This document shows, one piece after another, positions 2,640 through 23,669 of a stretch of 32,000 nucleotides of DNA. Every line of letters starts with the position of its first letter. The first letter of the stretch is position 1. Source of the DNA: Candidatus Jordarchaeales archaeon. GTDB taxonomy: Archaea > Asgardarchaeota > Jordiarchaeia > Jordiarchaeales > Freyrarchaeaceae. A model generated the notes under the pieces. It did no database searches. It saw only the letters and a list, made by a program, of their open reading frames with translations, and had not been told where the DNA came from. Where the stretch lies: NCBI GenBank assembly GCA_038889235.1, contig JAWAHN010000001.1, positions 884,499-916,498 on the forward strand, in the 5' to 3' direction. The translations under genes were made by a program, and so were the position numbers.

Positions 2640-3048
2640 GGCGGCGTGCCAGGAGTAACCCACCTTCTGTTGGGAGGACCGCCGTCGCCGGCGGCCTCCT
2701 GGCGGCATTCGGCTAAGCGCCCTACCCGCCGCCTCCCGTGGGCATCATCGGCAGCCTATTTGGGCTTTCAACCTCCGAGGCCGGCCGTTTCAACGATCCC
2801 ACTTGCGTCCTCGGCGGGTTAACTCGGCGCTTGTTGCCAAGCGCCTTCTCGGGAGATTTCCCCCCCTCAGCCGCCTCATCGCCATATTGCAAGTGGACGT
2901 GTCGTTTGCAGCCTTACCAATGGTTTCTGCTCCGGAGCCGGGCCTCTCGGCCCGCGCCTCGCGGCGCTCGGATCCCACGGTGGTTGGGTGGAGTTTCCTC
3001 AGCGCCCTTTTCAGGCGCCGTGGGCCGCCCTCTGGCTCGCCGCCTCAT
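2636..3048 (-). ncRNA. rnpB: RNase P RNA (archaeal type A-like)
   Basis: The minus strand carries the CR-I motif GAGGAAACUCCAC and CR-V AACAGAAGGUGGGUUACU, plus GCAGAAAC and UGAAACGGC. The P1 terminal stem is AUGAGGCGGCG...CGCCGCCUCAU. GC-rich island of ~413 nt. Confidence 0.93.

Positions 3049-9688: not shown

Positions 9689-9699
<11 letters not shown>
9648..9699 (+). other. 5' strand of the 23S pre-rRNA processing stem with BHB
   Basis: Pairs with 12763-12814. Central helix CGCC(9667-70)/GGCG(12788-91), with 3-nt bulges AAC (9671-73) and AAU (12792-94). Confidence 0.88.
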
Positions 9700-12762
<3,063 letters not shown>

Positions 12763-12773
<11 letters not shown>

Positions 12774-23289: not shown

Positions 23290-23306
23290 CGCGAAAGCTT
23301 TAATAC
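23290..23306 (+). promoter_or_regulatory. BRE/TATA promoter of the tRNA-Met gene
   Basis: CGCGAAAG-CTTTAATA lies ~30 nt upstream of G23331. Confidence 0.75.
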
Positions 23307-23330: not shown

Positions 23331-23540
23331 GCTGGGGTCTCCTAGACTTGTGGGATAGTATAACCGATCTGTACCACACTAGAATGGATTGCGCCGCCCA
23401 GAACTGGAGCCGGACTCATAATCTATCGTAATGAAAGGGGTCAGACTAGGATGAGAAATCCGGTTACGAGGGTTCAAGAGAGGGATAGCCGCTGTTAACT
23501 TGAGGGCGGCTGTCCACTGGAACTCCCTCCCCCAGCACCA
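23331..23540 (+). tRNA. tRNA-Met(CAU), elongator type, with four BHB introns and encoded CCA
   Basis: Exons 23331-47, 23385-89, 23404-20, 23458-78 and 23524-40 join to GCUGGGG UC UCCU AGACUGGAUC UGGA G CCGGA CUCAUAA UCCGG UUAC GAGGG UUCAAGU CCCUC CCCCAGC A CCA (77 nt). Each junction sits in a 3-4-3 BHB. Confidence 0.88.
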
Positions 23541-23579
23541 TTCTACTTTTTGAGAAACTTTCACAGAAAGCGAAAATTT
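23541..23579. terminator. Bidirectional T-rich terminator region between convergent tRNA genes
   Basis: + strand TTCTACTTTTT after tRNA-Met. Minus strand TTTTCGCTTTCT after tRNA-Thr. Confidence 0.55.
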
Positions 23580-23669
23580 TGGAGCCGCCGGGGGGATTTG
23601 AACCCCCGACCCGCGGATTACAATTGCGGTCTTTGATGTCCGCCGCTCTGCCTGCTGAGCTACGGCGGC
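23580..23669 (-). tRNA. tRNA-Thr(UGU) with a 14-nt intron at 32/33 and encoded CCA
   Basis: GCCGCCG/CGGCGGC acceptor stem, U73, GCUC/GAGC D stem, GCGGA/UCCGC anticodon stem. Removing 23624-23637 gives loop CU-UGU-AA. BHB helix GCGG/CCGC. Confidence 0.93.

Follow-up and report, generated by a model that had tools for sequence, protein, structure and literature searches.

A predicted elongator tRNA-Met gene with four BHB introns in a Jordarchaeales (Asgard) archaeon

A Jordarchaeales (Asgard) archaeon probably encodes a functional elongator tRNA-Met(CAU), apparently its only one, in a single gene of five exons and four bulge-helix-bulge (BHB) introns (probability about 0.88). The gene occupies positions 23331-23540 (+) of the window, i.e. 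the whole stretch of 32,000 nt that was analysed (C1:884499-916498), in a genome of 2.14 Mb that is distributed over 8 contigs and 95% complete (G000). It would be transcribed from its own TATA/BRE promoter into a precursor of ~215 nt. Intron 1 would be removed first and intron 2 thereafter, and the five exons would be joined by RtcB to a 77-nt tRNA already bearing CCA.

Results

The gene consists of five exons (17+5+17+21+17 = 77 nt) and four introns (37+14+37+45 = 133 of 210 nt), hence 63% of it is intron. Exon 1 (23331-23347, +, 17 nt) contains the 5' strand of the acceptor stem, U8 C9, the 5' strand of the D-stem and A14-C17. It is followed by intron 1 (23348-23384, +, 37 nt) at position 17/17a, which forms an hBHBh' motif with the helix CUAG/CUAG. 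Exon 2 (23385-23389, +) is a micro-exon of 5 nt, UGGAU, that supplies U17a G18 G19 A20 U20a, and intron 2 (23390-23403, +, 14 nt) is inserted at position 20a/21 with the BHB helix CUGG/CCAG. Exon 3 (23404-23420, +, 17 nt) comprises C21, the 3' strand of the D-stem, G26, the 5' strand of the anticodon stem and C32 U33 C34 A35 U36 A37. Intron 3 (23421-23457, +, 37 nt) resides at the canonical 37/38 position, again as hBHBh', with the helix CUCA/UGAG. Exon 4 (23458-23478, +, 21 nt) covers A38, the 3' strand of the anticodon stem, a 4-nt variable loop, the 5' strand of the T-stem and U54-G59. Intron 4 (23479-23523, +, 45 nt) at position 59/60 has the BHB helix UUCA/UGGA; the T stem serves as its outer helix, and a long hairpin lies inside. 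Lastly, exon 5 (23524-23540, +, 17 nt) holds U60, the 3' strands of the T-stem and the acceptor stem, A73 and the encoded CCA (23538-23540). The first-pass annotation had proposed that removal of these four segments leaves a 77-nt cloverleaf with encoded CCA; its coordinates proved exact, the four positions 17/17a, 20a/21, 37/38 and 59/60 in one tRNA-Met(CAU) gene were upheld, and ARAGORN assigned the 77-mer, spliced in silico, to tRNA-Met(cat). It had also expected the gene to escape standard finders. Among those that it named, ARAGORN gave no call on the unspliced gene with the intron mode on or off, and the Rfam tRNA model likewise had no match in the gene, even at E<=10, in a 471-nt stretch.

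The spliced tRNA conforms to a class I cloverleaf with a 7-bp acceptor stem, D, anticodon and T stems, anticodon and T loops of 7 nt and a discriminator base. U8, A14, G18 G19, U33, U54 U55 C56 and A58 are all present. The D arm is slightly off consensus, with U10 (paired with A25) for G10, a U13-U22 mismatch and C21 for A21. At positions 10 and 21 the congeners have A, G or U, and they form the pairs A10:U25, G10:C25, U13:G22 and U13:A22; since they keep the 10:25 and 13:22 pairs with other bases, the D arm is under pairing constraint. All stems pair in the four species of the genus except 13:22 in two of them. In the MFE fold of the precursor (z = -2.96) the acceptor, anticodon and T stems are retained, the helix of intron 3 forms together with the anticodon stem, and the inner hairpin of intron 4 is also present.

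A purine-rich BRE-like GAAAGC followed by a TATA box, TTTAATA, is located at 23293-23305 (+), 32 nt 5' of the first tRNA base. This spacing is as expected for an archaeal promoter. In an alignment, the upstream block CACGAAAAnTTTAATA is kept before the orthologous genes of the three congeners, and 23293-23305 is hence the putative promoter of the tRNA-Met gene. A T5 run downstream of the gene (23547-23551, +) is likely its terminator, as oligo-T serves as terminator in archaea.

The anticodon CAU is common to Met and to the minor isoleucine tRNA (tRNA-Ile2, in which C34 is converted to agmatidine), and ARAGORN labels any CAU tRNA as Met. The gene might hence be real and spliced as described but encode tRNA-Ile2 instead of elongator tRNA-Met, a reading that the comparison with the other CAU tRNAs renders improbable. 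Scanning for anticodon stem-loops with CAU, in which a canonical intron was allowed but not required, gave hundreds of chance matches and was replaced by a genome-wide spliced alignment by DP with the anticodon fixed to CAU, which yielded three genes including the present one. The second, with one intron in the T loop, is the initiator (C5:19303-19403). The third (C1:665903-666012, two introns) has the acceptor stem GGGCCCG/CGGGCCC and A73, identical to the organism's own tRNA-Ile(GAU), and is read as an Ile2-like tRNA. The acceptor stem of the four-intron gene, GCUGGGG/CCCCAGC, is unlike that of tRNA-Ile(GAU). Its G1:C72 pair and anticodon stem CCGGA/UCCGG also set it apart from an initiator tRNA, for which A1:U72 and three G:C pairs at the end of the anticodon stem are diagnostic. 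Moreover, the A31:U39 anticodon arm 'GACUCAUAAUC' is common to the candidate and to a CAU tRNA (L035) of genome G034, which is itself taken as elongator Met by sequence likeness. Judged by the likeness of acceptor stems, the four-intron gene would be an elongator tRNA-Met and not an Ile2. It is the only elongator tRNA-Met found, because the other two CAU tRNAs are the initiator and the Ile2-like tRNA. The first-pass annotation had asked for a check on further elongator tRNA-Met genes; the CAU search of the 95% complete genome found none, and a genome-wide search for paralogues of the four-intron gene gave nothing above the null.

A DNA search of 40 relatives located the gene in all three congeners, and its four introns occupy the same positions in each. 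The lengths of introns 1/2/3/4, 37/14/37/45 nt in G000, are 26/16/39/44 nt in G001, 30/15/45/42 nt in G002 and 14/15/39/44 nt in G003, and all spliced products are tRNA-Met according to ARAGORN. Identities of the three congeners to G000 amount to 97, 80 and 78% in the exons and 64, 54 and 61% in the introns. Compensatory changes on both sides were found in the acceptor stem (3:70 and 5:68), the D-stem (10:25, as U:A, A:U and G:C) and the T-stem (49:65 and 50:64). Each of these pairs links bases of different exons; 3:70, 5:68 and 10:25 connect exon 1 with exons 5 and 3 in the four species. The exons hence evolve jointly, as parts of a single cloverleaf. All of the four species encode CCA except G003, where the end reads CUA.

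Each intron was said to reside in a 3-4-3 BHB that is cleaved after the second bulge nucleotide. The recomputed geometry matched, and cutting after this nucleotide on both strands produced a valid cloverleaf in silico in the four species; intron 2 reaches a 4/4 helix only after removal of intron 1. The bulges of intron 1 are AC^U and AA^U, flanked by h' of 5 bp and h of 2 bp. Those of intron 2 are AU^U and AA^C (h' of 2 bp), whereby its flanking helices are short, 1-2 bp. In intron 3 (bulges UA^A and AA^A) the anticodon stem forms h, while h' has 3 bp, and the central helix is 4/4 in three species and 3/4 in the fourth. In intron 4 (bulges AG^A and AC^U, T stem as h) the helix includes one G-U; it is 4/4 in the four congeners and includes a compensatory exchange from UUCA/UGGA to UUCG/CGGA (A57:U to G57:C). 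Altogether, a 4/4 central helix occurs in 13 of the 16 intron instances of the four species versus 2.2% of random boundaries of this genome. The canonical class, a 4/4 helix with a flanking helix of >=2 bp, arises at 0.64% of random boundaries. At this rate per boundary, four canonical motifs at exactly the boundaries that restore the cloverleaf are far beyond chance.

It is very unlikely that fewer than four segments are removed, be it that one or both D-loop insertions are kept as an enlarged D loop or that the D-loop introns and the micro-exon are removed in another manner. The BHB of intron 2 is the weak point, with a 3/4 helix in two species and the short flanks mentioned above, and a preprint describes such D-arm stretches as unpaired insertions in annotator output (10.64898/2026.10.13.758758). 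Intron 1, however, has a perfect 4/4 central helix at the same position in the four congeners and an inner stem that varies by species (UGUGG/CCACA versus CGCCG/CGGCG) and covaries in spite of a length range of 14-37 nt. Furthermore, UGGA of the micro-exon is invariant in the four species between two fast-evolving introns and provides G18 G19, which the cloverleaf requires, whereas removal of the whole of 23348-23403 would result in a D loop of 5 nt that has no GG. That the gene is a decaying pseudogene, or resembles a tRNA by chance, has a negligible probability: in this species the D arm departs from consensus and the gene is not called by standard finders, but compensatory stem substitutions, a conserved promoter, four canonical BHBs, orthologues in four species and, with fewer introns, in other Asgard families, and the position as sole elongator Met candidate of a 95% complete genome all argue against it. 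From the comparative evidence, the tRNA-Met gene with its four BHB introns is real and almost certainly functional.

The two D-loop introns of this gene share bases. In BHB 1, C17 is a bulge base, U17a is the exon base of the 3' bulge and G18 G19 form the short outer helix; in BHB 2, C17 and U17a are the first and second helix bases, and G18 G19 also belong to the helix. Because the bases of the micro-exon UGGAU serve both motifs, BHB 1 and BHB 2 cannot coexist in canonical form. The helix of intron 2 is AUGG/CCAG (3/4) in the primary transcript and CUGG/CCAG (4/4) once intron 1 is gone; its first C is C17, the last base of exon 1, so that it is complete only after joining of exons 1 and 2. 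Simultaneous cutting at both introns would release a pentamer. Introns 1 and 2 are hence not expected to be cut simultaneously, and the predicted order is intron 1 ahead of intron 2. Among the congeners, G003 shows the same change from 3/4 to 4/4 on removal of intron 1, while the helix is 3/4 in G001 and G002, from which the dependence on intron 1 removal is absent.

The genome encodes two EndA paralogues, alpha at C1:1056164-1056754 and beta on contig C3, as well as RtcB (C1:704115-705422). The EndA of 196 aa possesses the Tyr/His/Lys triad and has its best match, end-to-end, in the catalytic subunit of Aeropyrum pernix (chain 3P1Z_B, E 4e-47). Its loop IRKPKTPQF is aligned opposite VEKPRGADF of A. 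pernix, Lys included. Reportedly, the loop with this Lys gives the (alpha-beta)2 EndA of A. pernix its broad specificity. The EndA of 195 aa has Val at the site of the catalytic His. A broad-specificity splicing endonuclease, which the first-pass annotation took to be implied by the four motifs, is consistent with this pair of a catalytic subunit and a His-less paralogue, apparently of the (alpha-beta)2 type. Two EndA paralogues are likewise listed for 44 of 60 Asgard genomes in the preprint (10.64898/2026.10.13.758758).

Intron 3 contains an invariant core, GGGGUCAGA, at 23437-23445 (+), with the consensus GGGGUC(A/G)GA, which is kept while the rest of the intron varies. Of the 251 Asgard genomes searched for the pattern ACTCATA-N6-30-GGGGTCRGA, all Jordi- (4/4), Freyr- (6/6) and Odin-like (4/4) genomes and 2/3 of the Atabey family had it, and few others did. 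In these lineages the core is again found in the canonical intron of elongator tRNA-Met (loci L002, L003, L012, L008, L009, L004-L006 and L083-L085), and the match at G031:C1:792679 falls within the published tRNA-Met of Atabeyarchaeia-2 (792623-792753). Elsewhere in G000 the core was not enriched (13 matches versus ~16 expected). It had no Rfam match. Conserved C/D boxes are likewise absent, and the motifs of this kind that had been considered in intron 3 were rejected, as G003 has no upstream GA. A search for a box C/D guide to methylate C34 gave no candidate. The consensus fold of intron 3 from ten orthologues comprises a single 4-bp pairing and is uninformative, because this pairing joins invariant bases.

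Orthologues of other Asgard lineages differ in their intron content. The Freyr-family gene has an intron at 20a/21 with the same CUGG/CCAG helix in addition to the canonical one, and its T arm is intact. In the sister genus (G004) introns 1, 2 and 3 are present, intron 2 with the same helix and position, and the T arm is uninterrupted. The gene of Atabeyarchaeia-2 has introns at 30/31 and 37/38. The number of introns is thus two in the genes of the Freyr and Atabey families, three in that of the sister genus and four in that of Jordarchaeum, and the canonical intron alone is widely shared. The elongator tRNA-Met of a complete Odin-like genome of 1.42 Mb (L006, G011:C1, ~581300-581480, -) contains four insertions of 14, ~35, 23 and 30 nt at 30/31, at 37/38, after position 43 and in the T loop, of which only the canonical one is in common with the elongator tRNA-Met of Jordarchaeum. 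In a boundary search with ARAGORN 83 of 1296 combinations were valid, hence the exact boundaries in the Odin-like gene are ambiguous while the four insertions are clear. The distribution among orthologues implies that intron 3 is old, intron 2 at least order-level, intron 1 family-level and intron 4 genus-level; the last is the youngest of the four, since the T arm of the sister genus is without it. The series of orthologues provides a dated case of one tRNA acquiring introns step by step.

Discussion

Tentatively, and with more doubt than confidence, we propose that the canonical intron is a functional RNA element rather than a passive spacer, and that in Jordarchaeum the micro-exon of the overlapping BHBs enforces an obligatory splicing order. 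The core of intron 3 could bind a factor acting on the precursor, or it could be the active part of a stable circular RNA formed from the intron.

The first-pass annotation placed the gene in the frame of the multi-intron tRNAs of Thermoproteales and considered that four introns may equal or exceed the known record. Neither view held: the host is an Asgard archaeon of the Jordarchaeales, and tRNA genes with four and even five introns were already on record for this lineage. Supplementary Data 4 of Valentin-Alvarado et al. (2024) provides four intron columns and includes an Atabeyarchaeia tRNA-Trp with 4 observed introns (PMC11291895). In Atabey- and Freyarchaeia 92-95% of the tRNA genes contain introns, and over half contain several (PMC11291895). 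For Jordi- and Freyrarchaeaceae the preprint gives 2.0-2.4 intervening sequences per gene and 'up to five' in one (10.64898/2026.10.13.758758). In G000 itself, a rough spliced alignment indicated about five insertions at the tRNA-Ser(CGA) locus and about four at the tRNA-Cys locus. Most tRNA genes of Freyrarchaeaceae, Jordiarchaeaceae and Atabeyarchaeaceae resemble the present gene in that they are interrupted by several introns of the BHB type, of which many lie in the D arm and many are missed by standard annotation, and they are accompanied by a two-paralogue EndA. Since earlier work has documented both the phenomenon and such intron counts, the view of tRNA intron biology does not change. 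We found no mention of this particular gene, its 5-nt micro-exon, the overlapping BHBs or the intron 3 core in PMC11291895 or in the accessible portion of the preprint (10.64898/2026.10.13.758758).

Two further systems are similar in part. Multi-intron tRNA genes are reportedly a feature of Thermoproteales. Up to three introns per gene are known from that order. Shared traits are BHB introns outside the canonical position, an (alpha-beta)2 EndA that has a Crenarchaea-type loop, and genes that call for special finders (SPLITSX). In contrast, the gene described here belongs to another phylum and has four introns versus three or fewer there. The mean for Pyrobaculum calidifontis is given as 1.54 introns per gene in the preprint (10.64898/2026.10.13.758758). 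Nuclear tRNA genes of the red alga Cyanidioschyzon merolae contain up to three BHB introns that are removed in order, and RT-PCR of intermediates related the processing order to the quality of the BHB motifs (PMC3728597). Both the alga and Jordarchaeum have several ectopic BHB introns, located in the D arm, at 37/38 and in the T loop. However, C. merolae is a eukaryote with a maximum of three introns, and the order was measured there, whereas in our case it is predicted from two motifs that share bases.

Methionine decoding in this archaeon appears to rest on one gene that needs eight cuts and four joins; as a natural substrate, it is therefore a demanding test of the range that the Asgard splicing endonuclease covers. 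Since ARAGORN and the Rfam tRNA model do not see the gene, annotations of Jordarchaeum genomes may show the elongator tRNA-Met as absent. The preprint finds that tRNAscan-SE misses 30% of intervening sequences, mostly in the D arm, and its census is limited to genes detected by this program (10.64898/2026.10.13.758758). Published counts built on tRNAscan-SE output may be too low for such genes, and the four-intron gene, being 63% intron, may be missing from the census of the preprint.

Other RNA genes

In the whole genome ARAGORN called 14 tRNAs and Rfam 12 above threshold. With only these recognised in a 95% complete genome, most tRNA genes of the organism must be cryptic, hidden by introns. 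A tRNA census by spliced DP with 51 compact references from two other Asgard genomes had a null maximum of 19-25. The four-intron gene scored <24 against these distant references, and the census was dropped because it is too insensitive for genes with three or more introns.

The window also contains a 23S rRNA gene (9689-12773, +) and an archaeal RNase P RNA (2644-3040, -). The rRNA genes appear unlinked, as no 16S rRNA gene is located in the 32-kb window. A tRNA-Arg(UCG) gene at C1:1074151-1074283 (+) is, judged by eye, interrupted by three insertions: one follows position 7, and the others lie in the anticodon and T loops. On contig C6 (~100-250, -) there is a free-standing copy of the 3' half of the initiator tRNA-Met (positions about 38-76, with CCA), preceded by a TTTATAA box and a G-rich leader; it may belong to a tRNA that is split or duplicated or, on a contig of 5.7 kb, be an assembly variant. 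Finally, a tRNA-Thr(UGU) gene (23580-23669, -) lies convergent with the tRNA-Met gene, 40 nt apart, and its anticodon region contains 14-20 inserted nt (ARAGORN i(33,14); Rfam tRNA 55.8 bits).
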